Below, piece by piece: positions 13,008 to 46,203 of a stretch of DNA of 64,000 nucleotides. Below the pieces are notes generated by a model, which was given only the letters and a program-made list of their open reading frames with translations, did no database searches and was not told the origin of the DNA. The first letter of the stretch is position 1; every line of letters starts with the position of its first letter. The stretch comes from Alphaproteobacteria bacterium. Lineage in GTDB: Bacteria > Pseudomonadota > Alphaproteobacteria > MPNO01. Location: positions 96,001-160,000 of the forward strand of contig CBDFLJ010000002.1 in assembly GCA_965248835.1 (NCBI GenBank). The letters are read 5' to 3'. A program made the position numbers and the translations under genes.

Positions 13008-13011
13008 TCCG

Positions 13012-14928: not shown

Positions 14929-15305
14929 ATGGCAATGAAATATCTGCCATTGTGGTTGATCGGTTTTTGTTTGTTTTTGTGTTCAGGAACTATAACAGCT
15001 GCGGAGAAGCTACGCCATCTGAAGTAAAACAATTGTTGGACGACAGAACAATCAGCGGTGCCACTGCGATCAGCGGCGTTGGGTTCACTTTGAACTTCGC
15101 GGCCGATGGGAATGTTTCGATTGATACGGATAATTATGGTTCTGACAGAGGAAAATGGCGAGTTGATAAGGACGCGAACTTCTGTATCAAGTATCAACGT
15201 TTTCTCGATCAATTAGAAAATTGTTTTACGTTGGCAATACGGGATGGTCAGCCCGTGTCTTTTAGAGCGGACAATGGAGCACCAACTTACTGGAGATTCA
15301 AATAA
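14929..15305 (+). pseudogene. Frameshifted AT-rich secreted protein (DUF995-like)
   Basis: ATG 14929 gives a signal peptide MAMKYLPLWLIGFCLFLCSGTITAAEKL and then stops. Another frame continues TPSEVKQLLDDRTISG...GKWRV...FCIKY. One base appears to be missing near 15011. Confidence 0.6.
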
Positions 15306-15435
15306 AAATTGCTCGTTGTGAGATGATTTGAGACAGGATGGTGGTGCCCGCGATATTCATTTGGGGTTGTCGGTGACGGTGACGTCTGAGCCGTGCGATC
15401 GCCGTGGTCACTATCGGGTGGAGAGCTTGGTTAAG

Positions 15436-15504
15436 AGCGGCTTCGACAAGCTTCTGCCGATGCACGAGACCAAGGCGGACGCGCGCGCATCCCTCGGCGG
15501 CTGA
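15436..15504 (+). pseudogene. 3' remnant of a STAS (anti-anti-sigma) gene
   Basis: Translates SGFDKLLPMHETKADARASLGG*, matching the end of the STAS at 43070-43408 (SGFDKILPIHPSRAEALSSLGG*). Confidence 0.7.
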
Positions 15505-15727
15505 TCGGCCGGGGCAAGAACGCCGGGCCGAGCCGCCCCGGGATGTCCGACGGGCGGTTCGCTTCGCGGCCTTTGTAAAGCGTCCCTCCAGGGTCGATCG
15601 ACGGTCCGGTTGTCGCGCGAAGCCCCCGAATTGCGTTTGCGCCTTCGGCTCCTGTGCGCCGGGTTCGAGCGACCGCGTCGGATCGGCGGCCGGACGAGCA
15701 AATCCCCGCTTACGAGAGGCATGAGAG

Positions 15728-16432
15728 ATGGACAGACGGAAAGTAGCGATCGTCACCGCCGGCGGCCGGGGGATGGGCGCCGCGATTGCCCGAGCTCTAG
15801 CCGCGCAGGATCACGCGCTTGTCCTGATGTCGCCCGGCGGGTCCGCCGAGGCGCTGGCCGCAGAGCTCGGTGCGATCGGCGTCAACGGTTCGGTCACCAG
15901 GGCCGGGGACCTCGAAAAGCTGGTCGGCGCGGCGATGGACGCCCATGGCCGGATCGACGCCGTGGCCAACAACACCGGTTTCCCGCCCAAGGGGCCGCTG
16001 CTCGAGATCCCCGACGAGGACTGGCATGACGGCCTCGATATGGTCCTGATGAACGTCATCCGCATGGCCCGGCTGGTGACGCCGATCATGGCCGGGCAGC
16101 GCGGCGGTGCGATCGTCAACATTTCCACCTACGCCGCCGTCGAGCCCAGCCCGGCCTATCCGGTCTCCGCGACCTTCCGGGCGGGGCTCTCCGCGTTCAC
16201 CAAGCTCTATGCCGATCGCTACGCCCCCGACGGCATCCGCATGAACAACATCCTGCCCGGCTTCATCGATACCCACGGCGTCGACGAAGAGGTGGCGGAA
16301 GGCATCCCCGCGCGACGCTACGGAACCCCGGAAGAGGTGGGCGAAACTGCGGCGTTCCTGCTCTCCGAGGGCGCCGGCTACATCACCGGCCAGAACCTCC
16401 GCATCGATGGCGGGCTGACGCGGTCGGTGTAG
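15728..16432 (+). CDS. Short-chain dehydrogenase/reductase (SDR)
   Basis: TAGGRGMG, NNTG, NIST, NNILPG, YITGQNLRIDGG. Confidence 0.9.
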   Translation: MDRRKVAIVTAGGRGMGAAIARALAAQDHALVLMSPGGSAEALAAELGAIGVNGSVTRAGDLEKLVGAAMDAHGRIDAVANNTGFPPKGPLLEIPDEDWHDGLDMVLMNVIRMARLVTPIMAGQRGGAIVNISTYAAVEPSPAYPVSATFRAGLSAFTKLYADRYAPDGIRMNNILPGFIDTHGVDEEVAEGIPARRYGTPEEVGETAAFLLSEGAGYITGQNLRIDGGLTRSV

Positions 16433-30190: not shown

Positions 30191-31722
<1,532 letters not shown>

Positions 31723-31726
<4 letters not shown>

Positions 31727-32283
31727 GCGGCCCCTTTCAAGGCTGTCTGCAGCTTCTGCAGCTTCGTTCTGAGGGAGGAATCGACCATGCGCGAGCCGAC
31801 CTTGACGATCAGCCCGCCGAGGATCTCGGGCTCGACGCGCGCCTCGACGGTGACGTTGGCGCCGACCGATCGGCGCAGCGCGTCCTCGAGCGCGTCGTGC
31901 TGGGCCGCCCCGAGCGGCTGAGCCGAGACGACGTCCGCAGTCATCTCGCCGCGGCGCGCGGCGAGCAGGGCCGCGAAGACCCTGATCATGTCGCCCAGCG
32001 CGGGCAGCCTGCGGTTGGCGGCTACCACGCCGACGAACCGCCGGGTCATCTCGCCGATCGCTGCGCGCTCCATCACTGCATCGATCGCCTTGGCCTGGTC
32101 GTCGCGGCCGATGATCGGACTGGTCAGCAGGCGGGCGAGATCGCCGGACTCCTCAATCATCGCCTGCAGGCGCGTCAAATCGTCCTTGACCTGATCGAAG
32201 GCGTCGCTCTCTCCGGCCAAATCGAATAAAGCGGTCGCGTACCGACCGGCGATACCGGACACGTCAATCGGCTCGGCTGACAC
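31723..32283 (-). CDS. atpH: ATP synthase F1 delta
   Basis: [10 protein letters not shown]...[17 protein letters not shown]. Confidence 0.96.
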
Positions 32284-32458
32284 CTGAGCTTGCCCCTAAA
32301 CCGTCTGGACGGTGACCTGTAATTCTCTCGTAACTGTATGAGAATCAAGGCGGTTTGTGCGCCGCGACGGGCCGGAAGACCCGCCTGCCAGCGCGGCAGG
32401 CCTACCTATCACAACCCCAAGACGGTTGCAACCCGCGGCCCCGCGCGCTCCCGGCCTG

Positions 32459-34555
32459 TCATTGGTGGCCGTGCAGCAGTTCGGAATAGGTCGGCAGCGG
32501 CCACAGACGGTGGTCCACGCGCTCCTCCAACCGATCCACCACCGCCCTTGCGGACTGCATCAGCGGTTTCATGGTTTCGTGGGCGTAGGACGCCGATTGC
32601 GCCGGGCCATCCTCGGGAAACTCATCGAACGCCTCGGCCAGATTATCGGTCTCGGTAAGCAACTGCTGAACGAGATCCTCCTTCTCGCCGAAAAGCCTGG
32701 AAGAAAAACCCGACCCGACGCCCGCGCGGACGTCTTCGATGGCCGCGGGGATGATGAAGGTCCGCAGGATGTTCAACAGCGTCCGCGCCTCGATCCAGAG
32801 CTCCGTGGCGTACGCCTCTTGCAGGACGCCCTGACGCGCCGCAATCTCCCGTTCGTTGAAGATGCCCAAATCACCGAACAGTCTGATGTTCTTGACCGAC
32901 GTCAGCTCCTGGTATGCCTCGGGGCTGCTCTTCAGATGGATCAGATCCCATCTTGCGGCGTGTTCATACAGCTCCTCGGAGTAGCCGTTGCCGCTGAACA
33001 ACGCGCCCTGGTTTTCCGCGATGGTCTCACGGATGACCTGGTCGACCTCCTTGCCGCCTTCGATCTCGTCGCACATGTGCTTCAGGCTGTCGGCCAGCGC
33101 CGCGTTGACCATCGTGAGCGGGAAGGCGATATGCTGGTTGCCGCCCACCGCCCGGAACTCGAACCGGTTGCCGCACCAGGGGAATGGCGCGGTGCGGTTG
33201 CGGTCCTCCAGATTGGCCCTGATGTCGGCGACCGGCGCCGATATCTCGATCTCCTTGTGCTGGGTTCCGTATGCGGTGAATTTGCCGCCTTCGGCGACCT
33301 TCTTGACATGCTTTTCCAGGAGCTCGCCGAGATGGAGCGTAATGATCGCCGGCGGCGCCTCCTGCGCACCCAGCCGGTGATCGTTGCCGGCGGTGGACAC
33401 CCCGCAACGCAGCAGATCACCGTGCTTGTTCACCCCGCGCAACAGCGCGGCGACGAAGGTGATGAAGCGCCGGTTGTCGTTTTCGGTTTTCCCGGGAACG
33501 AACAGATTGACGCCGGTGTCGGTGTTCAAGCCCCAGTTGTTGTGCTTGCCGTTCCCGTTGATGCCGGCAAACGGTTTTTCGTGGAACAAGATGGCGAAAC
33601 CGTGGTCGAAGGCCAGATCGCGCAGCACGTCCATCGCCAGCACGTTGGTGTCCGCGGCGAGGTTTGCCAAATTGAAGATCGGCGAGATCTCATGTTGCGC
33701 CGGCGCCACTTCGTTGTGGGTGCAGTGGATCGAAATCCCCAGCTCCCACATCTTCTCCCGCGCCGCCGCCATGTAGCGGTTCACCCGCGGCGGCAGCCTG
33801 GAGAAATAGTTGGTCGACATCTCCTGACCGCGAAGCGGCTTGGCCCCCACCAGAGTGCGTCCGGTGGCCACCAGATCGGGCCGCGCCAGATACTTCTCCC
33901 GGTCGATCAGGAAGAACTCCTGCTCCCAACCGACATTGCACACGACTTCCTTGGTGTCGGTGTCCCCGAGATGTTGCAACAACCGGAGGCTTTGTTCATT
34001 GACCGCAAGGTCGGCGCGCAACAGCGGGGTTTTCTGGTCGAGCGCCTCGCCGGTCCATGACACGAAGGCGGACGGGATGTACAGCGTTTGCCGGTAGACA
34101 AAGGGCGGTGATCCCGTATCCCAGCCCATATAAGCCGCCGCTTCGTGGGTTTCGCGGAGGCCTCCGTTGGGGAATGACGACCCATCGGTCTCGGTCTGGA
34201 ACAGTTGTGAGCCCGTCAAGTCTATGATCAACTTGTCGGTCGCGAAATCCACCGCCACGAATGTTTCGAGTTTCTCGCCGTGAATCGGCCCTCGTATGGG
34301 CGAGAACCAATGCGAATAGCCGATGCAGCCCTTCGACTGCGCCCACTCCAGGATGGATTTCGCCAACGCATCGGCGAAGTTCCTGTCCATCTGCAGCCCG
34401 GTCGCTCGGCACCGCGCGAACGCGTAATAGACGTCCGGATCGACCAGCTTTTTCAGGATCGCGTCGTCCAGCACATTGCTGTTCATGTTCGCCAATGCCT
34501 CGGGCAGGGCGACCGTCTGCGCCGGTGCGTCGTAGGTCGAATGCATCATGGCCAC
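32459..34555 (-). CDS. Glutamine synthetase type III
   Basis: About 700 aa; HWFSP, DGSSFPNGGLR, GWEQEFFL, HNEVAPAQHE, HEKPFAGINGNGKHNNW, NDHRLGAQEAPP, DRNRT..FEFR. Start placed at GTG 34555 behind GGGGAGG. Confidence 0.93.
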   Translation of the reverse strand: MAMMHSTYDAPAQTVALPEALANMNSNVLDDAILKKLVDPDVYYAFARCRATGLQMDRNFADALAKSILEWAQSKGCIGYSHWFSPIRGPIHGEKLETFVAVDFATDKLIIDLTGSQLFQTETDGSSFPNGGLRETHEAAAYMGWDTGSPPFVYRQTLYIPSAFVSWTGEALDQKTPLLRADLAVNEQSLRLLQHLGDTDTKEVVCNVGWEQEFFLIDREKYLARPDLVATGRTLVGAKPLRGQEMSTNYFSRLPPRVNRYMAAAREKMWELGISIHCTHNEVAPAQHEISPIFNLANLAADTNVLAMDVLRDLAFDHGFAILFHEKPFAGINGNGKHNNWGLNTDTGVNLFVPGKTENDNRRFITFVAALLRGVNKHGDLLRCGVSTAGNDHRLGAQEAPPAIITLHLGELLEKHVKKVAEGGKFTAYGTQHKEIEISAPVADIRANLEDRNRTAPFPWCGNRFEFRAVGGNQHIAFPLTMVNAALADSLKHMCDEIEGGKEVDQVIRETIAENQGALFSGNGYSEELYEHAARWDLIHLKSSPEAYQELTSVKNIRLFGDLGIFNEREIAARQGVLQEAYATELWIEARTLLNILRTFIIPAAIEDVRAGVGSGFSSRLFGEKEDLVQQLLTETDNLAEAFDEFPEDGPAQSASYAHETMKPLMQSARAVVDRLEERVDHRLWPLPTYSELLHGHQ

Positions 34556-34812
34556 CGGTTCTTCCTCCCCGATAGGTTCGCTGGTCGAGCCGAAACTACT
34601 GCATAACGCGACCGGCCGCCAAGGAGAACGATCCGCGCCGACGGCGCTGTCTGGCGCTGCGGGGCGGCGAGTATGAAGCTCCAATCAACTTGACCCTTGC
34701 GACGAAACCGGACAACAATTGTAGCGAACACTATGGACAACCGGATGCATGGCGATCGATCCGGAGCCGACATCTCGGACTGTCCGACACCGGGTGAAAC
34801 GTCGGTCCAGGG

Positions 34813-35253
34813 TTTGCTGAAATCGCTGTCCTCGAAATCTCGCTGACCAACGATCTTCAGGAGATCGCCGTCACGGCGGCGCAAATCGACGAATTTTGCG
34901 CTGCACGAGACCTGTCGCCGGCCATCGCCTTCGCCGTCAACCTGTCGGTCGATGAACTGCTGACCAACACGATCAGCTACGGCTACGACGACGGCACGCC
35001 CCATCGGATCGATATCGTGGTCCGCATGGACGGCAGCGTAATCGTCGTCGAGATCACCGACGATGCCAAGCCGTTCGATCCGTTCGAGGTCCAGAAACCC
35101 GATACCGACGCCGCGCTCGAGGATCGGCCGATCGGCGGATTGGGCGTCCACTTCGTCCGCGAGATGATGGACGGGTATCAGTACCGCCGCAGTCGGGGAC
35201 GCAACATCGTGACCTTGACCAAGGATACAAGGGGCGCCGCCGCCGGGACCTGA
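34813..35253 (+). CDS. RsbW/SpoIIAB-like anti-sigma factor Ser/Thr kinase (HATPase); lacks a canonical start codon
   Basis: Frame extended by hand: AEIAVLEISLTNDLQEI...NLSVDELLTNTISYGY...EITDDAKPFDP...RPIGGLGVHFVREMMD...YRR..GRNIV. TTT occupies the expected start position. Confidence 0.85.
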   Translation, partial: FAEIAVLEISLTNDLQEIAVTAAQIDEFCAARDLSPAIAFAVNLSVDELLTNTISYGYDDGTPHRIDIVVRMDGSVIVVEITDDAKPFDPFEVQKPDTDAALEDRPIGGLGVHFVREMMDGYQYRRSRGRNIVTLTKDTRGAAAGT

Positions 35254-35260
35254 AGGATGA

Positions 35261-35288
35261 GGCGCCGGGCATCGGGCATGCCGGCGCC
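35261..35288. terminator. GC hairpin between convergent genes
   Basis: GGCGCCGG-N12-CCGGCGCC; no U tract. Confidence 0.35.
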
Positions 35289-35294
35289 GCGCGG

Positions 35295-37241
35295 TCAGGC
35301 GGGCCCGCCGTTGTACCTCAGCACCAGACAGGTGATGTCGTCGGATTGCGGCGCCTCGCCGACGAATTCGGCGACCGCAAGGGTCACGTTTTCGATCACG
35401 ATGTCGACGGGGATCTCGTGGCCGACAGACAGCGCGGTTCGAATGCGTGCCTCTTCGAACATTTCGCCATCGCTGTTCATGGCTTCGGATATACCGTCGG
35501 TATACATGAACAGCGTGTCCCCCGCGGCAAGCGTCAGGCTTTTCTCTTCGTATGGCAGTTCCGGCAGGACGCCGATCGCGACCCCTCCGGTCAACGGCAA
35601 CACCTCGATCCCGCCGTCTTGTCGAACCAGGTACGGCGGATTGTGACCGCCATTGGCGTAGCTGAAATGGCCCGTTGACGGATCCAGAATGCCGTAGAAC
35701 AGCGTCACGAACAGATCGTGGGGGTTCTGCGAGCAGATCCCGTCATTGACCAGGCGCAGGCAGTCACCGGCCCGGTCGGTGTCCTGCGCGGTGGTGCGCG
35801 TAACCGTCCTTGCGATCGCCATGAAGAACGCCGCGGAGACGCCCTTGCCGGAGACATCGGCGATCACCACGCCGAGGCGGCCGTCCGGCAGGGTGAAGAA
35901 ATCGTAGAAGTCGCCGCCCATCTCGCGCGCCGGAGTCATCAGGGCGTGCCCCGAATAAGCGGTGTTTCGCGGCAAGGTCTTCGGCAGAATCGCGCCCTGG
36001 AGGGAATGCGCGATGGCGAGCTCGTCGTCCATGCGCTGTTTGGCCTGATCGAGTTGCGCGTTCTTCTGCTCCAGGTCCAACGTGCGCTCAGCGACCAGGG
36101 CTTCAAGATGTTCCTCGCGTGCCTGGACTTCGCGCGCCATCGTCTGGAAGACGCGGATCAGCCGTCCCAGCTCGTCCCGCCGGTGGCCGACGCGGTCGAG
36201 CGACTCCGGGGCGAAACTGCGCCGGTCCATCTCCTCGGCTGCCCGGGTCAGAGCCATGACCGGCCGCGTGATGCGGCGGGCCGACAATATTGCCGTCACC
36301 GAGCCGATCAGGAAGGCGGCGGCCGCAACGACCAGACCGAACATGAGGTAATCGGCGAGCAACCGGTCGAGCTGGTCACGCGGCATGTGGATGATCGCAA
36401 CGCCGGTGGCAACGCCGCCGCGGTCCAGGATGGGCGCGCCGACATGGAGCTCGTCCCGGCTCAGAAAGGACTGTGCGCCCGCACCGAGTACGCGGCCGGC
36501 GAGCGCCCTGTCGGCGGCCATAAACACCGGTTCCGGCGCGCCGCCGTGCGTGCCGCTGGCGACCGCGGCATTCACCTGAAGTGAATCGTCGACCACCCAG
36601 ATCGCCCGGACTCCGGGTTGCCCGGCCAGCGAGCCCAGCGTCGCCGCGAGGCTGATGATCTCGCGCAGGTGCGTGGTCTTGTCCACCAGGCTGCCGACCA
36701 GCACCGGCCCGCCGCCGCGGGTGCGGACGCCGACATATCGCAAGGGGCGCTCCAACCCGTCCCGCGGCACCGACTGGAGGGTGACGGAGAAACGGCGTCC
36801 CGACAGGAGGGTTTGCAAGACCGGTCCGTCGATATCCTCCAGAGCCATGTCGGTGCCGGCCTGGCTGAGCCCGTTGATGGCGCGCGCCGACGGCGTTCCG
36901 CTTTCGTCCAATATCCAGATGTCGTCGATAACGCTGTTCGCGGTAATCTCGGCGAGGTGAATGGCCAGCGCGCCGGCGTCGGGGCCGACGACCTCCGCCA
37001 AGTGGGCCAGCGCGATCGCCTGTGCCTCTTTCTCTTGCGCGACGACGCGGTCGATCTCGTCGGATATCAGCCCGGCTCGGTTGGCCTCGCCCGCGATCAG
37101 GCCGGCGACAAGCCGCGCTTGGTTCTCGGCCTGGCCGATCAGCGCATCGCGGGCCAGGAGGCCCAACGCTATCGCCACGCCGAGGATGGCAACGCCGACC
37201 GACGCCGAGACGATCAGGACCAGATGCCGGGACAGACTCAC
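35295..37241 (-). CDS. Membrane sensor PP2C/SpoIIE phosphatase (TM-periplasmic-TM-HAMP-SpoIIE), RsbU-like
   Basis: Two TMs, HAMP (ITRPVMALT...DELGRL..F..M), GGDFYD, DVSGKG, NGGH, YTDGISE, DDIT. GTGA overlap with the upstream permease. Confidence 0.92.
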   Translation of the reverse strand: MSLSRHLVLIVSASVGVAILGVAIALGLLARDALIGQAENQARLVAGLIAGEANRAGLISDEIDRVVAQEKEAQAIALAHLAEVVGPDAGALAIHLAEITANSVIDDIWILDESGTPSARAINGLSQAGTDMALEDIDGPVLQTLLSGRRFSVTLQSVPRDGLERPLRYVGVRTRGGGPVLVGSLVDKTTHLREIISLAATLGSLAGQPGVRAIWVVDDSLQVNAAVASGTHGGAPEPVFMAADRALAGRVLGAGAQSFLSRDELHVGAPILDRGGVATGVAIIHMPRDQLDRLLADYLMFGLVVAAAAFLIGSVTAILSARRITRPVMALTRAAEEMDRRSFAPESLDRVGHRRDELGRLIRVFQTMAREVQAREEHLEALVAERTLDLEQKNAQLDQAKQRMDDELAIAHSLQGAILPKTLPRNTAYSGHALMTPAREMGGDFYDFFTLPDGRLGVVIADVSGKGVSAAFFMAIARTVTRTTAQDTDRAGDCLRLVNDGICSQNPHDLFVTLFYGILDPSTGHFSYANGGHNPPYLVRQDGGIEVLPLTGGVAIGVLPELPYEEKSLTLAAGDTLFMYTDGISEAMNSDGEMFEEARIRTALSVGHEIPVDIVIENVTLAVAEFVGEAPQSDDITCLVLRYNGGPA

Positions 37242-37870
37242 GTGTGCTGCTCCGCCAGGTGGACGCGCAAGCCCCGCATCACCAAGGTCACCGCGGCCGC
37301 GAAAGCGAGGAACCAGATCATTGCGTAAAGATAGACCCAGAACGAGAAATCGTTCCTGCCGATCGCGCCGATCACGGTCTCGGCCCGGTGGACGAGTTCC
37401 GGCACGCCAATGACCGAGGCGGTAGCGGAGGCCATGACGATGATCAGGAAATAGCTGGTCCAGGACGGCAGGAACAGCAGCGCTTCTGCGGTCTCTCGGC
37501 GTCTGAGGTGCCGCAGCGCGGCGAGCGCGTTGTCGGACACATAGCCGGCCACCGCGATCGCCAGCGCGAGCGATGCCTTGATCCAGGCCGGCACGGTCAC
37601 GACGACGCCAAGGAGTTCGAAGGTTCCGGGGACGGCATAGGCGAGATAGAACAGCATCACGAAGGTCGGCGCGCTGCGGGCGAACACCGTCAGCGCGCCG
37701 CCGCCCCGGCTGACGCCCGAAACGGAGCCGGCCCGCATCAACGCCAGCAGCAGCCCGATCGGCGTACCGATCGCCATCGCGGCCAGCGAGACGGCCATGT
37801 TCCAGCCGAACCCGCCCGCGAGGTAGGGCGTCCAGGTTATCAGCACGTCGGCAACATCGAGCATCGTCAT
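37238..37870 (-). CDS. Polar amino-acid ABC permease-like protein (HisM-type, EAA loop shortened)
   Basis: YLAGGFGWN, RSAPTFVMLF, ASVIGVPELV. ATGA overlap with the upstream gene. Confidence 0.8.
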   Translation of the reverse strand: MTMLDVADVLITWTPYLAGGFGWNMAVSLAAMAIGTPIGLLLALMRAGSVSGVSRGGGALTVFARSAPTFVMLFYLAYAVPGTFELLGVVVTVPAWIKASLALAIAVAGYVSDNALAALRHLRRRETAEALLFLPSWTSYFLIIVMASATASVIGVPELVHRAETVIGAIGRNDFSFWVYLYAMIWFLAFAAAVTLVMRGLRVHLAEQHT

Positions 37871-39477
37871 GACGCGTGGCCCCGCTGTTCCCAAAGGCGG
37901 AAGAGCTGGACCGTGAGGAAGACCAGTACGAAGTAGCAGATCAGCAGCAGGTTCATCATCACGTCGTCATTGCCTTTTTCGGCAACGATGGCGGTGCTGG
38001 CGTGCACCAGCTCCGGCAATGCCAGGGTGCTGGCCATCCCGGTCGCCTTGACGATGTTGACCGAATTGCCCATCACCGCGGCGTGGCACAGGCGCAGCGC
38101 CCGGCGGAACTCCCGGATTCTGAAGCCCAGCGCGCCGCCCGTGCCGGCGGCGACGTCCGCCGCCAGGGCGAACGAAACGGCATTGCTGGCTGCGGCGTAT
38201 AGCGACAACACCACGGATGTGACGGTGAATGCGTCGAGCGAGAAGCCGAGCGCCAGAATGACACCGCCAAGCCCGAAAAAGACGACATAGAGTTGCAGCA
38301 ACGGCGGCGTCATCCGCAAGACCGCGCAAAACGCATGCAGAAACCCACCGACGACCGGCACGCGCCGATGCATCAGCCAACCGAACACCGCGCCCAGGAC
38401 GATGCTGCCCATGACCGTCACGATCGACAGCGCGGCCGTCAGGGCCAGGCCGAAGAGAAAGACGTTGCGGTCCAGCGGGTCGTAGAGCAGGCTGACGTCC
38501 AGACCCGTCGCCTCCATCAGCATCAGGGATACCCCGGAAATGCCACCCAGTTCGCGGCCCGCGACCAGCGCGACCTCGCGGCATGCCAGCGGCCATCTTC
38601 CGGCGTCGTCGCGCCGGCAGACCAATTCGCCGGCCGCGTCGGTCTGCTGCCAAGTCGACCGGGCGCGCCGCAAATAGGGTGAGGGCGGCAACCCCCACCG
38701 CTTCTCCAGCTCTTGCAGGAAGCCGCCGCGGTGCCATCCGGCCAGCGTGTCGCCCAGCAGTCGATCCAGGCGGCTGCCCGCCTCTTCCTTGGCGATGGCG
38801 ATCGCCCAGGGTGAAACGAAACGCGTAGGCAAGGACACGCTGTAGCCGTCCCAGTCTCCGCTCGCCAGCTCATTCAACAGGTTGACTTCGTCGTACAGCC
38901 AACCGATGCAGTGCCCGTTGCGCAAGGCCAGCAAGGCCTCCCGCGTGGAGTTGAGGGAGATCGGCTCGACCAGGAGACGTTCGCGGGCGAGGCGATTCCA
39001 CAGCGAGCCCTGGACGCTGCACAGCGTCCGGCCCCGCAGGTCCTGCCAATCGGAGATCCGCGCATCCGGCCGCAACAGGACGTTGGCGCCGTCGCCGTAA
39101 TATTGCGGCTCGACCATGGTAACGAGCTCGCGGCGGCTGCGGGTGTCGCCCAGCGTGGCGACGATGACGTCGATTTCTCCGCGCTGGAGCTTCTGCAGCC
39201 GGTTGGCGCTGGTCACTGGTTTCAACCGCAGCGACACGCCGATGGCTTCGGCCAAGGCGCGGGCGACATCGGTATCGTAGCCGACCAGGGCGCCGCTGGC
39301 GTCGCGGAAGCCGAAGGGTCGGTAGTCGGCCTTGACCCCGGCAACCAGATAGCCGCGGCCGCGGATCTCCTCAAGCCGGTCGGCTGCGGCCGCGCCGACG
39401 CTGCACAGCCACACGCCGAATGCGATAAGCACGAAACCTGCATAGGGGCATGGGCGGTGCCGGCCAGAAGTGCTCAC
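37867..39477 (-). CDS. Fused SBP family 3 binding domain plus amino-acid ABC permease
   Basis: Signal peptide, RLEEIRGRGYLVAGVKADYRPFGF, VTSANR..L..GEID, then FLFGLALT, LRMTPPLLQL, IVKATGMAS. GTG start overlaps the methyltransferase stop. Confidence 0.85.
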   Translation of the reverse strand: MSTSGRHRPCPYAGFVLIAFGVWLCSVGAAAADRLEEIRGRGYLVAGVKADYRPFGFRDASGALVGYDTDVARALAEAIGVSLRLKPVTSANRLQKLQRGEIDVIVATLGDTRSRRELVTMVEPQYYGDGANVLLRPDARISDWQDLRGRTLCSVQGSLWNRLARERLLVEPISLNSTREALLALRNGHCIGWLYDEVNLLNELASGDWDGYSVSLPTRFVSPWAIAIAKEEAGSRLDRLLGDTLAGWHRGGFLQELEKRWGLPPSPYLRRARSTWQQTDAAGELVCRRDDAGRWPLACREVALVAGRELGGISGVSLMLMEATGLDVSLLYDPLDRNVFLFGLALTAALSIVTVMGSIVLGAVFGWLMHRRVPVVGGFLHAFCAVLRMTPPLLQLYVVFFGLGGVILALGFSLDAFTVTSVVLSLYAAASNAVSFALAADVAAGTGGALGFRIREFRRALRLCHAAVMGNSVNIVKATGMASTLALPELVHASTAIVAEKGNDDVMMNLLLICYFVLVFLTVQLFRLWEQRGHAS

Positions 39478-40322
39478 GGAGCGCCCGGAGCCCGAGGTCG
39501 GCTCACGATCAAGAAACCGTAGCCGCTGGCCACGGGCGCGAGCCGGCACGCCAGGTCGTCCAGTCGGCCGAGCAACGGCTTGCCGACAACAAGACTTTCG
39601 GGCAGCAGGCTCTCGGGTTCCATGCTCTCGATGCGGAAACCTGCGGCCGAGAGGTCGCGGTGTACCTCCGGCGGACGGAAGAGGTGGTAGAACAGCCGGA
39701 TCTCGTCGCGGCCGCGGCCGCGCGTATAGAGTATGTCGCCGGGCTCGAGTTCGCCGGCCCGCACCAGCGGGTCCGCCGCGCGTTGTTCGGCGCGAAACCG
39801 CCGTCGCGCATTCGGCAGGCCAAGGATCAGGACGCCGTCCGGTTTCAGCATTTCGCGCACCGCTCCGAGCAGGCGCATGCGCTCCGCCCGTCCGGCGACG
39901 TGCCCCAGAACCCCGAAAGTCAAAAGCGTGAGATCGAACGCGCAACGATACTTCTCGGCCAGCGCGGTCAGGTCGCCGTTCCGGATGACGAGCCGTCCGT
40001 CGCCCACGAACGCGCGCAGGCGCTCCGCCATCGTCTGGCACGCCGCCGGACAGACATCGTAGGCCACCCCGTTCGCCCGGGTCAGTTCCATCAGCGGCAG
40101 CGTGTAACGTCCCGTGCCCGCGCCAAAGTCGAGGAAGCGGCCTTCGGCGGGCAGACAGCGCAGCGACGTCCTCAGCGTGCGCCGGTTCGGGCGTGGATAG
40201 CGCTGGTCGTAAAGGCCGGAGGAGATGTAGGCCTCGTAACTGCCGGCCATGTCGGGCACTTCCGCCTGCGGTGCGGGCGTGTCGTGGTCCGGGACGCTAG
40301 CGGCGTCCCTGGGTGCGATCAT
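39474..40322 (-). CDS. Class I SAM-dependent methyltransferase
   Basis: FLDFGAGTGRY motif I, YDVC, FGVLGHV, LKPDG. Confidence 0.85.
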   Translation of the reverse strand: MIAPRDAASVPDHDTPAPQAEVPDMAGSYEAYISSGLYDQRYPRPNRRTLRTSLRCLPAEGRFLDFGAGTGRYTLPLMELTRANGVAYDVCPAACQTMAERLRAFVGDGRLVIRNGDLTALAEKYRCAFDLTLLTFGVLGHVAGRAERMRLLGAVREMLKPDGVLILGLPNARRRFRAEQRAADPLVRAGELEPGDILYTRGRGRDEIRLFYHLFRPPEVHRDLSAAGFRIESMEPESLLPESLVVGKPLLGRLDDLACRLAPVASGYGFLIVSRPRAPGAP

Positions 40323-40414
40323 TGTCCCTCCGTCGGCCTCGGCTCATTGGGGGCTTGTCTCCGAAGCGACGACATCATTATGCTGCCGACATCGGGTCAA
40401 CCCTAATATTGGCG

Positions 40415-40489
40415 GTCCCGGTTGGCAATGCATTACGCAGTCCCGGTCGGCAATGCATAGTATTGCGGCGGTCCCGTTGGGCAAATTGC
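40415..40489. repeat. Three direct repeats in a divergent promoter region
   Basis: GTCCCGGTTGGCAATGCAT (40415), GTCCCGGTCGGCAATGCAT (40440), GTCCCGTTGGGCAAATTGC (40471). Confidence 0.75.
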
Positions 40490-40575
40490 GCGCTGGAATC
40501 GGCTCTGGAAGGGGCGGGCATGAGGACTTGCGGACGCGCAACGCCTGGATTGCCGATGGCGAAAAGGGGCAAAGG

Positions 40576-41478
40576 TTGAGACCGCGAGTCAAGGATCCGT
40601 TGCGACGCTGGTCGATGGCGGCGGTGCTGGTGTTGGCCGGGCTGGCGGCCCACGCCGGAGCGCACGCGGCCGATGGCGTCCTGGAACGGGTCGCGGCCGA
40701 GGGGGTGATTCGCGCGGGCACCCGGGCAAGCGCGGCGCCCTTCGCCCAGAAGACGGCCTCCGGAGAGTTCGAGGGATTTTCGGTCGACCTGCTCGAGGAG
40801 ATCCGCGCAGCCGCCCAGAGGACGGTCGGCCGGGCCGTCCGGCTTGCGCTTTTCGAAGTTACCCCGGCCGATCGGCTGCAGCGCGTCGCAGCCGGCGAGA
40901 TCGACATCGTCTGTGGCATCACCACGCCGACCTGGAAGCGGGAAGGTCTGGTGGATTTCTCCCTGCCGTTCTTCCGCGACGGGACCCGTGTGATGGTCTA
41001 TCGTGGGCGTGCTGGGCGCGTCGCAGACATCCACCGGCTCAAGATCGGCGTGGTCCAGGGCACCACCACCGTAGCGGTTGTCAAAGATCGGCTGCCCGCG
41101 GCCAGTCTGCGCGTTTACGCCAACATGGGCAATGCGATGCGCGGGCTGGAGACCGGCGAGGTCGAGGGCGTGGCCAATGTCGGCGTCGTGCTGCTCGGGC
41201 TGAGTGCACGCAGCAAGCCGCGGCGCAGCGTCGTGTTGTTGCCCAGGACCCGCGCGTTGGCGACGGAAACTCTGGCCTGTGTCCTGCCGCAGAACGACAG
41301 CCGTTGGCGGGATCTGATCAACCGGACCTTGGTCGAGATGTATCTCGACGTGGAAGACTTCCGCGGCCGTTACGAGGAAATCTACAACCGCTGGTTCGGT
41401 CGCGACAGTGCGCTGTTCTATCCGCTCGACCGCGGTACCCGCGCCTACCTTGCCGATATCTCGGTCTGGGCCAGGTGA
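40576..41478 (+). CDS. Periplasmic amino-acid (Glu/Asp/Gln-type) binding protein, SBP family 3
   Basis: Signal peptide, GTRASAAPF, GFSVDL, VTPADR...GEIDIVCG.TT.T..R...VDFSLPFF, GTTT. Start uncertain (40576-40615). Confidence 0.85.
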   Translation: MRPRVKDPLRRWSMAAVLVLAGLAAHAGAHAADGVLERVAAEGVIRAGTRASAAPFAQKTASGEFEGFSVDLLEEIRAAAQRTVGRAVRLALFEVTPADRLQRVAAGEIDIVCGITTPTWKREGLVDFSLPFFRDGTRVMVYRGRAGRVADIHRLKIGVVQGTTTVAVVKDRLPAASLRVYANMGNAMRGLETGEVEGVANVGVVLLGLSARSKPRRSVVLLPRTRALATETLACVLPQNDSRWRDLINRTLVEMYLDVEDFRGRYEEIYNRWFGRDSALFYPLDRGTRAYLADISVWAR

Positions 41479-41579
41479 TCGCCTCGATGTGCGCCGGCCG
41501 CGTTCGATCCGGATCCCGGATCCCGGGATCGAATCGAACAACATGGGGCTGCCGTCGGCTGCCAGGACGCAGACCTGAA

Positions 41580-42968
41580 ATGAACCGCCGCAAGGTTGGC
41601 CCTCCGGGGTCCAGGGCGCGGCTTGGTGCAGCTCTGCCCTTCGGCTTCGCGGCCGCACTCTCCCTGGCGCTCTTCTCCTCGGAAGCGCGCGCCGCGCTCG
41701 ATAGCGAGACCCAGTTCGTCCTGAACAGTTTTTCGTTCCTGGTGTGGGGCGCACTCGTGATGTGGATGTGCGCCGGCTTTACCATGCTCGAAGCGGGTTC
41801 GGTGCGCACCAAGAACGCCTCCGTGATCTGCCTCAAGAACATCGGCCTCTATTCTATCGCCGGGCTGATGTTTTACTTGGTCGGCTACAACATCATGTAT
41901 GTTGACGTCGAGGCGGGCGGCTGGTTCGGCTCCCTCGCACTCCTTTACGAGACCTCGGCCGAAGAAGTCGCCATGTTGCAGGGCGGGGCGGAGACGACGG
42001 CCGCGGTCGTCAAGACCGGCCATGCGACGATGTCGGGCTGAATTTTCCAGATGGTGTTCGTGGCCACGACGGCCTCGATCGTGTCCGGCGCCTTGGCCGA
42101 ACGGGCAAAGCTGTGGTCGTTTCTGGTCTTCGTTACCGTGCTCACGACGATCATCTATCCGGTCGTCGGCGCCTGGACGTGGGGCGGCGGATGGCTCGCC
42201 GAAATGGGTTTCAAGGACTTCGCCGGATCGACCATCGTGCACTCGACCGGCGGCTGGGCGGCGTTGGCCGGCGCCCTCGTCGTCGGCGCGCGGAAAGGCA
42301 AGTTCCGCCAAGATGGCAGCGTCAAGGCGACCCCGCCGTCGAACGTACCCGCGGTGACGCTGGGCGTGTTCATTCTCTGGCTCGGTTGGTTCGGTTTCAA
42401 CGGCGGTTCGCAGTTGGCGCTCGCCGGTGTCGTCGACGCGGTGGCGATCAGCAATATCCTGGCCAACACGAACCTCGCCGCGGCCGCGGGCGTGATGTCG
42501 GCGATGTGCTTGTCGCGGCCCATCCTGGGGCGCCTCGATCTGCTCGCGAGCCTGAACGGCGCTATCGCCGGACTGGTGGCGATTACCGCGGGGCCCGACA
42601 TCGTCGATCACTATTGGGCTGTCGTCATCGGCGCGGTCGGCGGCGCCGTATGCGTCGCCGGTCTGAAGCTCCTGGAGCGCTTCAAGATCGACGATGTCGT
42701 CGGCGCAATCCCGGCCCATCTGTTCGCCGGCATCTGGGGGACGCTCGCGGTTTGCATTGCAGGCGGCGGCGATCTGCTGGTACAAATTGCCGGAATCGCG
42801 GCCATCGGCGCCGCGGTATTCGGTGCCTCTTGGTTGACGTGGTCGGTCATAAAGTGGACGATTGGCGTGCGTACCACGCCGATCGTCGAGCAGTTGGGTC
42901 AGGATGTGGCGGAGTTGGGCATCGAGGCCTATCCGGAATTCGTGGTCGTGCCAGACGCCGATGACTGA
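41580..42968 (+). pseudogene. amtB: Ammonium transporter (Amt) interrupted by one in-frame TGA at 42039-42041
   Basis: LVMWMCAGFTMLEAG.VR.KN, then SG*IFQMVFVAT, AER, DFAGSTIVH, WFGFNGGS, IDDVVGAIPAH. Both halves are in the same frame. Confidence 0.88.
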
Positions 42969-43069
42969 GGGCCGAACAGCCCGCCCAAGCGGGGCGGTAC
43001 CGCGTGTGGCCTGCCGCCGGACGGACATGGGATGTAATTCGAAGGGGGCGACCCCGGGAGACGAAGACG

Positions 43070-43408
43070 ATGGACGTTACGACCGAACGGCATGACGATG
43101 TTCTGTCCGCCGACGTGGGCGGGCGCATCGACGGATCCAATGTCGTCCAGTTCGAGGAAGCGATCAGAACCGCGATCGAGGACAGCGACCGCGCCGTGAT
43201 CATGGATTTCGGGAAGCTGGTATATATCAGCAGCGCGGGCCTTCGCGCCGTCCTGTTGACGGCCAAGTCCCTCCACAGCCGTGACGCCAAGCTGTTGCTT
43301 TGCTCGCTTTCGGGGCCGATCCGCGAGGTCTTCGAGATAAGCGGTTTTGACAAGATCCTGCCCATTCACCCGTCCCGGGCCGAAGCTCTCTCGTCTCTGG
43401 GCGGCTGA
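43070..43408 (+). CDS. STAS domain anti-sigma factor antagonist 1
   Basis: GRIDGSN, MDFGKLVYISSAGLR (phosphorylatable Ser), EVFEISGFD. Confidence 0.92.
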   Translation: MDVTTERHDDVLSADVGGRIDGSNVVQFEEAIRTAIEDSDRAVIMDFGKLVYISSAGLRAVLLTAKSLHSRDAKLLLCSLSGPIREVFEISGFDKILPIHPSRAEALSSLGG

Positions 43409-43561
43409 TGCCGGAGATACCGATCGCTTGCAGCGCCTGGCCTGGAGCGCGACGACGCCGTCCCGGATCGGGGATATCTCGTTGCGAGCCACCCTTTCGC
43501 CCGCTAGCTTCGAAGTGCCGGATCGAACGTCTATTCTCTATTTCGGAGATAACCAGACAGC

Positions 43562-43918
43562 ATGCTGAACGTTACAGAAGAAAAAGCCGCCTCTGTGGCC
43601 ATCGTCTTGATCGACGGCCGTGCCGATGGCGTGACGGCGCCGGACCTTGAAGACCGGATCGTGAAAATTGTCGAACGCGGCGATGTCGATGTGTTGCTTG
43701 ATTGTGAAAAGATGGAATACATCAGCAGCGCAGGGTTGCGTGTCCTTCTCATAGGCGCCAGAAAATGCGAACAGAACGGCGGCAAGCTGTCGATTTGTGC
43801 GCTGCAGCCCGATTGTAGATCGGTCATCGAAATCGGCGGATTTCAAACGGTAATCGATTGTTATGACACACGCGAAGCCGCCCTCGCGGCCGCAGCGCAG
43901 CGGAGCGCAACATGCTGA
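43562..43918 (+). CDS. STAS domain anti-sigma factor antagonist 2
   Basis: GRADG, LDCEKMEYISSAGLRVL, VIEIGGF. Confidence 0.9.
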   Translation: MLNVTEEKAASVAIVLIDGRADGVTAPDLEDRIVKIVERGDVDVLLDCEKMEYISSAGLRVLLIGARKCEQNGGKLSICALQPDCRSVIEIGGFQTVIDCYDTREAALAAAAQRSATC

Positions 43919-44568
43919 CATTTGCGGAAGAGATTTTGTTGCTGATGCTGGATGACGAGGACGGTTCGTTTCTGCCGGTTCGTGAAAGCGCTGTCGAATA
44001 TGCCCTCGCAGGCGCTGTGCTGATGGACTTGGCGTTCTCGAACCGGATCGACACCGACCCGGATCAACTCGTTCTTCTGGACAACAAACCGACCGGCCAC
44101 CCGGTCCATGACAGAGTTCTTGATCACATTGCGCGCTCGTCCGAGACCAAGGACACGAAGACATGGATCGAGACGATTGCCCGGCTTGAATCCGCGGATA
44201 TCAGGAACCAGGCTCTTTCCAGCCTGATCGACCAGAATATTCTCGAATCACAAGAGGAAAAATTCCTTTGGGTCTTCCGCGCACGGCGATATCCGACGAT
44301 TGACGGGCGCACGGAACGCGAAGTGAAGCGGCGCATCACCGATGTCCTGCTGTCCGAAGCGGTGCCGGACCCCAGGGATGTAGCAATCGTCGGCCTGGCC
44401 GATGCCTGCGATCTGCTGCGCGAGGTGTTTTCCGACCGGGAGATCAACCGGATACGCCCGCGCATCGATCAGATCCGCAACCTGGATCTCCTCGGTCGCG
44501 AGGTTAGCGGCGCCGTCCTGGAAATCGAACGTTCGATCGCCATGGCGATGATGCATGCACCGCACTGA
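43912..44568 (+). CDS. GPP34/GOLPH3/Vps74 family protein
   Basis: MLTFAEEILLLMLDDEDG...LAGAVLMDLA...RID, L...IL...KFLWVF..RRYP. Overlaps the STAS 2 stop by 7 bp. Confidence 0.85.
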   Translation: MLTFAEEILLLMLDDEDGSFLPVRESAVEYALAGAVLMDLAFSNRIDTDPDQLVLLDNKPTGHPVHDRVLDHIARSSETKDTKTWIETIARLESADIRNQALSSLIDQNILESQEEKFLWVFRARRYPTIDGRTEREVKRRITDVLLSEAVPDPRDVAIVGLADACDLLREVFSDREINRIRPRIDQIRNLDLLGREVSGAVLEIERSIAMAMMHAPH

Positions 44569-44685
44569 AACACCGCACCGAAACACCAACTGAAACACCG
44601 ACCGGCATTTTCCCTCAGGCATCCTAAGGCAATTTCCAATCGGGTCGACTCGAGCCGATACGGTTCCCGGCCGGCCTGATCGGCG

Positions 44686-46203
44686 TCAACCCTCGGTCTC
44701 GAAGGTGCGGATGTCGGGGGGCTCTCCGGGCAGGCCGAGAGACCGCCAGGCCCCGGCGACTTCCTCGTAGACCTCACGGCGCAGCGTCGTGCGTTTGGCG
44801 AATTCCGTCAGGTGTTTGTGCGGCTTGCAGACGTTGATCAGCGCCTTCGAGCCGTAGGGCCGGTTCTCCGGCGGATGCTGGCTCGGGTCGAGCTGGGTGC
44901 TCCAGGTGTTGCGCAGGAAATCGATATCCTCGATAGGGTTGCACCGGCTGCCCATCGCCCACAGCACCTCGTCCATGTTCGACGGGTCGATGTCCTCATC
45001 CACGGCGATGATCCACTTGGTGAAATAGGCTCCGCCCGGCATCTGGGCGGCGAGCGCCAGCGCCTGGGCGGCGTGTCCGGCATAGAGCTGCTCCAGACTG
45101 ATCACTGTCATCCCCAGCCCGCCCGAGACCGCGGGGTGGGCATAGACCCCCTTGATGCCCGGGATCCCCAGTGAATCGAAATCGTCCCATACCCGGGCCG
45201 AGCGGATGACGGCGAAGAAGCCGCTCTGCTCGCACGAGGGGTAATCGGCCATCAGCGCGTTGGTCAGGATCGGGTTGTCGCGGAAGTGGACCGCGGTCAC
45301 CTCCATCAGCGGTGCCTGGCCGCCGGGCTTGCCGTAATAGCCGGTGAACTCGCCGAACGGGCCTTCCTCGGCGGTGGCGTTGGGGCGGATCACCCCTTCG
45401 AGGACCAGGTCCGCGTTGGCCGGCAGGAGCAGATCGGTGGTCTTGCCGCGCACCACCGGCACGGGCTGGCCTTTCAGGCCGCCGATATACTCATACTCGG
45501 AGACGTTCTTGGGGAAGCCCTGCGAGCCGACCAGCATGAACAGCGGGTCGATCCCCCAGGCGGCGGCGACCTGGACCTCTTCGCCGCGCGCCCAGCCCCG
45601 CGCGATGTGCAACCGCGCGTCCTTGCCGGGCGACAGGTAGAGCCCGGCCTGGCGCTTGCCTTGCTGCATCATCCGGTAGGTCCCGATATTGAGGTGGCCG
45701 CTGTCCGGATCGCGTGTGATCACCGCGTCCCCGGTGCCGCCGTAGCGTCCGCCGTCGAGCGGCCAGTGCTTGGGGATCGGCAGCAGGTCGAGGTCGATCT
45801 CATCGCCGATCAGCGTGTTCTGGAAGATCGGCGCCTCGTCGGGCTGCACTTCGGCGGGCGGCGTGCGGTTCTTCATCTTCGACTTGACCCGGCCGATCAG
45901 GTCGATCGCCGGCGTGTCGACCGGCTCCTCCAAGGTGAGCGCGACCCGGCGCAGGCTGGGGCCGACCAGGTTCCACAACAGCCGGGCGCCGACCGGGCTT
46001 TCCTCGAACCCGGCCGGATTCTCGAACAGCACCGTGGGCGAGGGCCGGCGCTTGGCCAGCATGTAGACCACTGCGCTCATCACCTCGTCGCGGCTCACCG
46101 GCGCGTCGATGCGCACCAGTTCGCCGATCTCCTCGACCTCTTCGATCCATTGCCGGAGATCCTGGATCGGCTCGTTGCGCGTGCGCTGTTCGATGTCGTT
46201 CAT
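44686..46203 (-). CDS. UbiD family prFMN-dependent (de)carboxylase
   Basis: DLRQWIE..E..GEL, DGGRY, NIGTYR, EGPFGEFTGYY, VDEDIDP, WAMGSRCNP. Confidence 0.92.
   Translation of the reverse strand: MNDIEQRTRNEPIQDLRQWIEEVEEIGELVRIDAPVSRDEVMSAVVYMLAKRRPSPTVLFENPAGFEESPVGARLLWNLVGPSLRRVALTLEEPVDTPAIDLIGRVKSKMKNRTPPAEVQPDEAPIFQNTLIGDEIDLDLLPIPKHWPLDGGRYGGTGDAVITRDPDSGHLNIGTYRMMQQGKRQAGLYLSPGKDARLHIARGWARGEEVQVAAAWGIDPLFMLVGSQGFPKNVSEYEYIGGLKGQPVPVVRGKTTDLLLPANADLVLEGVIRPNATAEEGPFGEFTGYYGKPGGQAPLMEVTAVHFRDNPILTNALMADYPSCEQSGFFAVIRSARVWDDFDSLGIPGIKGVYAHPAVSGGLGMTVISLEQLYAGHAAQALALAAQMPGGAYFTKWIIAVDEDIDPSNMDEVLWAMGSRCNPIEDIDFLRNTWSTQLDPSQHPPENRPYGSKALINVCKPHKHLTEFAKRTTLRREVYEEVAGAWRSLGLPGEPPDIRTFETEG

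Follow-up and report, generated by a model that had tools for sequence, protein, structure and literature searches.

A conserved partner-switching locus linked to an ammonium channel and to GPP34 but lacking a sigma factor gene in an alphaproteobacterium

Partner switches such as RsbU/RsbV/RsbW and SpoIIE/SpoIIAA/SpoIIAB are built from a PP2C phosphatase, a HATPase_c_2 kinase, and a single-domain STAS protein with a conserved serine. Outputs other than sigma factors are already known for such switches, and their list is growing. SiaABCD of Pseudomonas aeruginosa comprises the HAMP-PP2C protein SiaA, the kinase SiaB, SiaC, and the diguanylate cyclase SiaD, and RssB and HsbR-HsbA represent the switches with a REC-PP2C phosphatase. 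For bacterial ammonium channels (Amt), post-translational control is to our knowledge known almost only via P-II proteins (GlnK). Here we describe a locus in a 64-kb stretch of an alphaproteobacterial genome (assembly GCA_965248835.1, contig CBDFLJ010000002.1, positions 96,001 to 160,000), which is called the window in the following and from whose first letter all positions are counted. The block of interest at 32459-44568 encodes a type III glutamine synthetase (GSIII), an RsbW-type serine kinase, a membrane-bound HAMP-PP2C phosphatase, an Amt, two STAS proteins (STAS1 and STAS2), and a GPP34 protein. It is a real and conserved partner-switching locus that contains no sigma factor gene and is tied to the ammonium channel and to GPP34, and the recurrent pairing of its genes suggests a so far undescribed link of nutrient sensing to ammonium handling. 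Our literature search found no described system with this architecture, as the first-pass annotation of this DNA had supposed, and no paper linking Amt to STAS proteins or anti-sigma antagonists; neither STAS nor anti-sigma occurs in a review of prokaryotic Amts.

The first-pass annotation, made from the sequence alone, had named all of these parts, and all of them are present according to the Pfam and NCBIfam family scans that, together with start-codon checks, form the basis of our gene map. The kinase is encoded on the forward strand in an open frame of 151 codons (34798-35253) and matches the whole HATPase_c_2 profile, from position 2 to 127 of 127 (PF13581, E-value 1.3e-24). Its N box and GxG motif are readable in the translation, its start codon is non-canonical, and phmmer did not find a match to it in the PDB. 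The phosphatase (35295-37241, reverse strand, 648 aa) matches SpoIIE (PF07228, E-value 8.1e-53) and HAMP, and the catalytic and metal-binding motifs GDFYD, DVSGKG, TDG, and DDIT can be read in its translation. The Amt gene (41580-42968, forward strand) has Ammonium_transp matches on both halves of a frame that is interrupted by an in-frame TGA. Directly downstream of it lies the gene of STAS1 (43070-43408, forward strand, 112 aa), a single-domain SpoIIAA/RsbV-like protein that is supported by Pfam (PF01740, E-value 2.1e-18) and by a profile match to SpoIIAA in the PDB (1auz, E-value 3.2e-17), and in which the two serines of the YISSAGLR motif are invariant in 25 of 25 orthologues. STAS2 (43562-43918, forward strand, 118 aa; Pfam STAS E-value 7.9e-17) is 34% identical to STAS1 and contains the same motif, which the first-pass annotation had correctly read in both proteins. 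Judged by their sequences, both are predicted to carry a conserved phosphorylatable serine on a single STAS domain. The stop codon of STAS2 overlaps the start of the GPP34 gene (43912-44568, forward strand, 218 aa) by 7 nt. GPP34 is a full-length, short-form member of the GOLPH3/Vps74 family (PF05719, E-value 1.2e-48, profile positions 2-200 of 201) and is also found with GOLPH3 in the PDB (3kn1, E-value 4.7e-9). A 129-aa open reading frame at 35257-35646 (forward strand), considered as the likely kinase of the first-pass annotation, was rejected, being antisense to the PP2C gene and matching no family.

The source genome assembly comprises 4.89 Mb in two contigs with 66-68% G+C. Its only SpoIIE-family PP2C, its only two STAS proteins, its only GPP34, its only Amt, and its only strong HATPase_c_2 match (four others are weak) are all encoded in the block, and because all genomic copies are located here the switch is self-contained. 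By marker genes, the 'contamination' of this genome amounts to 9.5%. As noted before, neither a P-II nor a sigma factor gene is present in the block, and this holds for the whole window, in which no match to Sigma70_r2 was found either. The only P-II gene of the genome is a glnB that immediately precedes glnA at a distance of about 780 kb from the window, and it is not adjacent to amt as in the AmtB-GlnK arrangement. Five genes of the sigma-70 family are present in the genome, none of them in the window.

To judge the conservation of the neighbourhood we used two sets of loci. For the first, the PP2C protein was searched in 40 relatives, resulting in 15 full-length places in 14 genomes with 56-82% identity, and about 20 kb were taken around each, although several of these regions end at a contig end. 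All 15 loci contain the phosphatase together with a solute-binding protein (SBP), an SBP-permease fusion, and a permease. Of these loci, 13 also encode the kinase and 12 Amt, while STAS1 and GSIII were each found in 11 and STAS2-GPP34 in one. Two loci are rearranged and still have Amt, STAS1, and GSIII together (L037, L038), and two others contain the four sensory genes only (L034, L036). For the second set, the STAS1 alignment was searched against one genome per species, and the best 80 of at least 467 relatives (55-95% identity) were analysed with 10-kb flanks. These are nearly all from metagenome-assembled genomes; families were tallied by tblastn (E-value of at most 1e-8), and additional families were identified by Pfam on cluster representatives. 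According to the names in the records, the loci span four phyla, the Pseudomonadota, Acidobacteriota, Chloroflexota, and Latescibacterota, with Alpha- and Gammaproteobacteria, Terriglobia/Acidobacteria, Dehalococcoidia, and Latescibacterota as the groups concerned. Amt is found within 10 kb of STAS1 in 56 of the 80 loci, in 41 of which (out of the same 80) it is located directly upstream on the same strand. The kinase and PP2C are each found in 50 loci, the latter as REC-type (37), HAMP-type (11), or another type (2). A Peripla_BP_6 binding protein is encoded in 38 loci, a HAMP histidine kinase in 36, GPP34 in 16, SBP_bac_3 in 11, and STAS2 in 5. Neither Amt nor PP2C was found in 11 loci, some of which are on short contigs. 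The gene set thus recurs in 15 PP2C-anchored and 80 STAS1-anchored loci, which is the conserved co-localisation that the first-pass annotation had asked to be looked for, and the association of the genes is more than chance.

The order of the genes is not fixed. In one arrangement Amt is followed by STAS1, a REC-PP2C, the kinase, the binding protein, and the histidine kinase. A second one (L114) has the same order with Amt as the last gene and with overlapping stops and starts, and in a third one (L102) the genes of an ATP-grasp protein, Amt, an Alpha-E protein, and a transglutaminase precede STAS1. In about 17 of the 80 loci the Amt-STAS1 pair stands alone, and five such genomes encode RsbW-type kinases and P-II elsewhere. 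The CP_ATPgrasp_2, Alpha-E, and transglutaminase genes occur within 10 kb of STAS1 in 25, 26, and 15 loci, respectively. As a triad they are located beside or around Amt-STAS1 in about 25 of the 80 loci (L047-L054, L086-L121), for example at 4869-9836 of L102 and 1579-4900 of L037; in Acidobacteriota Amt is inserted inside the triad, and the source genome does not have it. This hints at a role of the triad in nitrogen handling.

Within the class, 400 evenly drawn genomes were sampled. An Amt of the TIGR03644 type ('marine subtype') was found in 108 of them and a STAS1-type gene in 10, which belong to at least seven families. STAS1 is located directly beside Amt in six of these ten, and the respective Amts form the lowest-scoring full-length group (498-524 against 540-661 bits), the ordinary 'marine' Amts having no STAS1. 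Therefore, STAS1 marks a distinct Amt branch, and by its sequence the Amt of the window would be placed in this low-scoring branch of the 'marine subtype'. Its whole match to TIGR03644 reaches 508 bits (397 bits for the C-terminal part in the family scan) and thus stays below the cut-off of 514 bits, around which the STAS1-linked orthologues are scattered (498-524 bits); with this score and an interrupted frame it is not a member of TIGR03644 in the strict sense. The twin histidines and other transport residues are kept in the Amt sequences of the cluster.

A cognate sigma factor is not encoded in the window and might act in trans. The locus would then be an ordinary anti-sigma system, in which a sigma factor encoded elsewhere is held by the kinase and freed by unphosphorylated STAS. 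The parts are indeed bona fide SpoIIAA/RsbV-, RsbW-, and RsbU-like proteins, and partner-switching genes are sometimes split between loci. However, the five sigma-70-family genes of the genome are all located outside the window, and each of the two STAS proteins has its own conserved non-sigma neighbour. In addition, a tblastn search with five seed proteins, which could miss divergent ECF sigma factors, detected a sigma factor in just one (L089) of the 95 related loci, while P-II was found in none of them. The presence of a cognate sigma factor in all homologous clusters, which the first-pass annotation had named as speaking against its idea, is therefore not what the loci contain, and we regard an ordinary anti-sigma system as hardly probable.

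In our judgement, the chances are about even that the block constitutes a complete partner-switching system without a sigma factor, in which the sensing of solutes in the periplasm sets the phosphorylation of the STAS proteins, STAS1 being coupled to Amt and STAS2 to GPP34. An amino acid, an amine, or another nitrogen compound outside the cell would set the activity of the PP2C phosphatase. The phosphatase would remove, and the kinase would add, the phosphate on the serine of the YISSAGLR motif. Unphosphorylated STAS1 could then dock onto Amt from the cytoplasmic side, in the manner of GlnK on AmtB, and its docking would either gate Amt, or Amt would sequester STAS1. STAS2 might act on GPP34 as STAS1 on Amt. 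A hint at the partner of STAS1 comes from the loci L047-L054, in which STAS1 is 72-85% identical to that of the window and the kinase only 36-40%. We take this difference to mean that STAS1 is constrained by some partner besides the kinase, for which Amt, being 69-89% identical across the same loci, would be the obvious candidate. It is possible, if doubtful, that a STAS protein driven by phosphorylation, instead of P-II, is the dedicated cytoplasmic partner of this whole Amt branch, that the module spread horizontally in host-associated bacteria of at least four phyla, and that the switch also controls GPP34. The first-pass annotation had proposed that the extracellular amino-acid or nitrogen status is relayed through STAS phosphorylation to a non-sigma output such as Amt, GSIII, or GPP34. 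The conserved synteny, the 94 of 95 loci in which no sigma factor was detected, and the constant presence of solute-binding proteins agree with this relay; GSIII, however, does not belong to the core, Amt is interrupted in the source genome, and fusion proteins (see below) raise the possibility that Amt is an input. As a whole, the earlier observation is thus partly confirmed.

Several points weigh against a switch acting on Amt. No Amt was found within 10 kb in 24 of the 80 STAS1 loci. The related genomes are not independent, many of the loci may share one habitat, and co-transfer could inflate the counts, as escaped ECF sigma factors could deflate that of the sigma search. In the source genome Amt is broken, and L043, which has the highest STAS1 identity of the best 80 loci, contains only a frameshifted C-terminal Amt remnant upstream of STAS1 (9309-9896). 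The likewise close relatives L044 and L046 do not encode Amt and have GPP34 divergent from STAS1 (9137-9805 in L044 and L046). Amt thus appears to be being lost in the sub-lineage of these three loci. Since STAS1, kinase, and PP2C persist there, Amt is not the sole partner of the switch. Furthermore, the kinase does not have a canonical start codon here and in most orthologues, and natural fusions of Amt with PP2C and kinase domains put Amt upstream in a sensor-like position, so that the reverse direction of signalling fits them at least as well.

The conservation across phyla could also have a different origin. Across the phyla, the identity is 69-89% for Amt and 49-86% for STAS1, and this near-identity makes the module a candidate for horizontal transfer driven by the habitat. 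At 41728-41855 and 42112-42431, the Amt gene is matched with many differences by contigs (summed depths from hundreds to thousands) from four sequencing runs of a single sample. These matches to conserved parts imply that many co-resident organisms carry close relatives of this Amt branch. The locus might therefore be a horizontally transferred nutrient island, or its genes might merely be co-transcribed, in which case the target of the switch would be unlinked and STAS1 would never touch Amt. The unusually high identities, the patchy distribution within the class (10 of 400 genomes), the many loci from metagenome bins of possibly one habitat, and the contigs of other organisms in the runs of a single sample would all be expected from such an island. 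It is harder to understand from this why the adjacency of Amt and STAS1 survived independent rearrangements, with Amt in the first position, in the last position, or inside the ATP-grasp operon, why about 17 loci keep the pair alone, and why fusions join Amt to the same enzyme families. Thus, we consider an island without contact between STAS1 and Amt to be unlikely.

Two defects of the block were not mentioned in the first-pass annotation, the TGA in the Amt gene and the missing canonical start codon in the kinase frame. The TGA is located at 42039-42041, where nine of nine relatives encode tryptophan (TMSDWFFQ), and the window also differs from the relatives at both flanking codons. The site is covered without difference by the contigs X1 (41816-42257) and X3 (41816-42190, depth 33), which stem from separate assemblies of two public runs on the same sample; these runs may be the source of the genome assembly itself. 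Public-run contigs also contain a minority form with a 1-nt deletion at 42016. A glitch of the consensus is unlikely because the TGA was found in independently assembled contigs. Recoding of TGA (code 4 or 25) was rejected, the genome having 66-68% G+C and TGA ending neighbouring genes such as STAS2 in the normal way. Because of this one TGA inside the profile match of the only Amt copy, the Amt arm is probably inactive in the source genome. The kinase frame does not contain ATG, GTG, or TTG before 35017, and a start there would lose the N box. Translation probably starts with ATC at 34822, resulting in a protein of 143 aa. We aligned twelve kinase genes at the conserved N-terminus, that of the window and eleven orthologues (sites in L028-L042). 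At this position, GTG or ATG is found in four genes and ATT in three. In another three, among them that of the window, an ATC or ATT precedes the position by two codons, and the remaining two genes are unclear. To go by this alignment, a weak, near-cognate start looks like a common feature of these kinases and not like decay, and it suggests that initiation might be deliberately weak.

Given these defects, the block could be a decaying relic in the source genome, with a pseudogene for Amt and an untranslated kinase, regulating nothing. The TGA with its two flanking substitutions, present in independent contigs next to the minority deletion, the missing canonical kinase start, and the Amt remnant in L043 would be in accordance with decay. 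However, the orthologues share the non-canonical kinase start, and PP2C, STAS1, STAS2, GPP34, GSIII, and the two solute-binding proteins all have their full length and share 70-86% identity with their orthologues, so that we think a mere relic very unlikely.

The sensory head of the proposed switch comprises more than the 'amino-acid binding proteins' listed previously: two SBP_bac_3 proteins are present as claimed, but one of them forms a fusion with a permease, and another permease is encoded next to it. The SBP_bac_3::permease fusion (37867-39477, reverse strand, GTG start at 39477) matches SBP_bac_3 (E-value 1.2e-22) and, with its C-terminal part, HEQRo_perm_3TM of NCBIfam. The permease-like membrane protein (37238-37870, reverse strand) is of the polar-amino-acid ABC type, with 37.7 bits to HEQRo_perm_3TM, weak NCBIfam matches to cystine and ectoine permeases, and no match in Pfam. 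Both permease domains (36-38 bits) are slightly below the cut-off of this family (42.2 bits), the binding domains being matched. The orphan SBP_bac_3 protein (40615-41478, forward strand, ATG at 40615) has a signal peptide and is a periplasmic GrrP-like protein (SBP_bac_3 E-value 2.9e-21; TIGR04262 134.6 bits, below the cut-off of 190). The family scans did not reveal an ABC ATPase among the open reading frames of the block; the rest of the genome was not searched for one. The genes of the SBP-permease fusion and the permease overlap each other, and the stop of the latter overlaps the start of PP2C, which suggests that the three form one operon and may act as co-sensors.

The phosphatase itself is predicted to be composed of a transmembrane (TM) helix, a dCache-like periplasmic domain, a second TM helix, HAMP, and the PP2C domain. 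Its sensor region has no match in Pfam. An AlphaFold model of residues 1-320 (pLDDT 70.8) contains two alpha/beta modules besides a long helix and the second TM helix. In Foldseek it is best matched by the dCache ligand-binding domains of receptors for amino acids, histamine, and other small ligands (E-values 1.7e-7 to 1e-5, with TM-scores of only 0.3-0.45). For the phosphatase, the best match to a solved structure is 6k4e, and another PDB match is 3eq2, annotated as a 'probable two-component response regulator'. The type of sensory head varies between lineages. Here it consists of a dCache-like HAMP-PP2C with SBP_bac_3 and permease-like proteins, and elsewhere, in the commoner architecture, of Peripla_BP_6, a HAMP histidine kinase, and a REC-PP2C. 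There, the gene of the binding protein precedes that of the histidine kinase, in which a TorS sensor is weakly matched; this order recalls binding-protein-dependent kinases. Common to both is a periplasmic solute-binding protein.

Natural fusions tie Amt physically to the same enzyme families. Among 120 listed long Amt proteins, eight carry a SpoIIE PP2C, six of these also HATPase_c_2, and one P-II. The order Amt-(PAS/GAF)-PP2C-kinase was confirmed by Pfam, for example in P0084 (Amt 10-402, SpoIIE 516-706, HATPase_c_2 730-849). The fusions place Amt upstream, so that signalling may run in either direction. A protein of 801 aa (P0121) has Amt and P-II as precomputed Pfam domains and would be a fusion of the classical pair. 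For STAS1, two matches in longer proteins were found among those listed and no true STAS fusion, which is weak evidence. Read-through or a frameshift in the gene calls would seem to account for both, and they were rejected: P0004 has a STAS N-terminus running into unrelated sequence, and P0005 a GPP34 C-terminus followed by a spacer and STAS1.

From the fusions one could conclude that Amt is the input, an ammonium receptor read by STAS1, the kinase, or PP2C, so that ammonium and periplasmic organic-nitrogen signals are integrated on STAS. The outputs would then be GPP34, GSIII, the ATP-grasp/Alpha-E/transglutaminase genes, or unlinked targets. The fusions begin with Amt and continue with PP2C and an RsbW-type kinase, which is also the layout of the Amt receptors Ks-Amt5 and Sd-Amt1 described in PMC11152129. 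A preprint on an Amt with a fused phosphoprotein phosphatase domain reads this protein as sensory, and the switch persists where Amt has been lost. However, the receptor signature N1/N2 as given in PMC11152129 (QX6EX15NX2D[F/T]X54-60TX2[S/T]) was found by regular expression in none of six cluster Amts, whose transport residues are kept. The Amt of the window has no fused domain, stands alone, and adjoins STAS1 and not PP2C, which in turn already has its own predicted periplasmic sensor and solute-binding partners. Altogether, Amt as the input seems rather unlikely, yet it deserves consideration. A co-fold of one chain of the mature Amt of L031 (25 rows) with STAS1 (25 rows) scored 0.11 and 0.15 against a mark of 0.32, and counts as a model neither for nor against binding.

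GPP34 was supposed by the first-pass annotation to belong to the same unit as Amt. This is not supported in that form: STAS2 and GPP34 constitute a module of their own, in many cases with no Amt nearby. In 24 GPP34-anchored loci, a STAS gene adjoins GPP34 in nine and any part of the switch was found in ten, namely the kinase within 10 kb in six, PP2C in three, and Amt in one. In the class sample GPP34 is present in 21 of the 400 genomes, and in 8 of the 10 STAS1-positive against 13 of the 390 others. STAS-GPP34 is therefore a second recurrent module, independent of Amt, which in the window shares the single kinase and PP2C of the genome with Amt-STAS1. This arm looks intact in the source genome. 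GPP34 was described as a sponge-symbiosis family in 16 phyla by Ferreira et al. 2025 (PMC11706023), who propose that it acts on host phagocytosis and report cytochrome P450 neighbours in Actinobacteriota. STAS, anti-sigma, phosphatase, and ammonium appear nowhere in the main text of that paper, whose supplements may list STAS neighbours. The protein of the window is a short-form GPP34 related to eukaryotic GOLPH3/Vps74, its phyletic spread is similar to that given for the sponge symbionts (PMC11706023), and it is translationally coupled to a STAS gene. Being translated together with a phosphoprotein that resembles anti-sigma antagonists, GPP34 looks like a component of signalling in the cytoplasm, and this coupling bears on the proposal that GPP34 aids sponge symbionts in evading phagocytosis (PMC11706023). 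If the proposed control is true, the 'eukaryote-like' GPP34 would be an intracellular output of nutrient signalling, rather than or besides a host-acting factor.

GSIII (32459-34549, reverse strand, 696 aa, ATG at 34549) is a GlnN-like type III glutamine synthetase, of which the N-terminal (GSIII_N, PF12437, E-value 2.5e-47), catalytic (Gln-synt_C, PF00120), and C-terminal domains (Gln-synt_C-ter, PF18318) are all matched. Its orthologues in the 11 PP2C-anchored loci are 76-86% identical. Contrary to the earlier assumption it is, however, not a core member of the system but a lineage-specific neighbour, because it is found in only 6 of the 80 STAS1-anchored loci. It might assimilate ammonium as a functionally related neighbour outside the switch itself.

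As described previously, the block is located directly upstream of atpH (31723-32283, reverse strand), with GSIII adjoining atpH and divergent from the kinase. The atpH gene is followed by atpA (30191-31726, reverse strand), and ubiD (44686-46203, reverse strand) is located beyond GPP34, all three identified by the family scans. Most of the long open reading frames of the window are spurious because of its G+C content of 62-72%. The 1.1-kb divergent spacer between the SBP-permease and the orphan SBP genes (39478-40614) has no match in Pfam and Rfam, and the long open reading frames across it resemble upstream extensions of both flanking genes. An 80-aa open reading frame at 43408-43650 has no Pfam match, and Rfam gave two sub-threshold matches only in 31000-46000. 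The consensus pattern of sigma-54 promoters matched 8 times with 12.9 matches expected, and scans for sigma-70 promoters and terminators did not exceed shuffled sequences. PADLOC did not assign STAS1, STAS2, GPP34, kinase, or PP2C to a defence family. Elsewhere in the window, the region 12001-16000 has a G+C content of 0.60-0.62 compared to about 0.67, with a strongly positive GC skew of 0.18 at 14001-16000, and may be a foreign or strand-biased insert.

Compared to RsbU/RsbV/RsbW and SpoIIE/SpoIIAA/SpoIIAB, the locus contains the same three protein families but no sigma factor gene in the block, the window, and all but one of the related loci, and its two STAS genes have non-sigma neighbours instead. 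With SiaABCD it shares the membrane-bound HAMP-PP2C and, as proposed, an output other than a sigma factor, and SiaA (NF038263) is the best NCBIfam match of the phosphatase. However, the score of 114 bits is far from the cut-off of 700, the STAS proteins are SpoIIAA-like, and no GGDEF protein, and thus no diguanylate cyclase, was found among the open reading frames scanned, so that the locus is not a SiaABCD system. The commoner form of the cluster, in which a histidine kinase feeds a REC-PP2C, resembles the REC-PP2C switches, whereas the phosphatase of the window is a dCache-like HAMP membrane protein, and the neighbours are Amt and GPP34 and not regulators of flagella or RpoS. Like Ks-Amt5, Sd-Amt1 (PMC11152129), and the Amt-PP2C-kinase fusions, the locus couples an Amt to cytoplasmic signalling enzymes, which in the fusions are of the same PP2C and HATPase_c_2 families. 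It differs from them by its stand-alone Amt, in which the N1/N2 signature is missing as in all six cluster Amts, and by a PP2C with its own sensor. Finally, as in AmtB-GlnK, on which the proposed docking is modelled, the gene of a small regulator is located directly beside that of the ammonium channel in one operon. Here, however, the regulator is a STAS phosphoprotein and not a P-II trimer, its binding is a proposal, and the signal would be the phosphorylation of a serine instead of uridylylation or the binding of 2-oxoglutarate and ATP. If a switch of STAS, PP2C, and kinase is indeed wired to Amt, ammonium channels would have a second means of control that is independent of P-II, and membrane transport would join the non-sigma outputs of partner switching.

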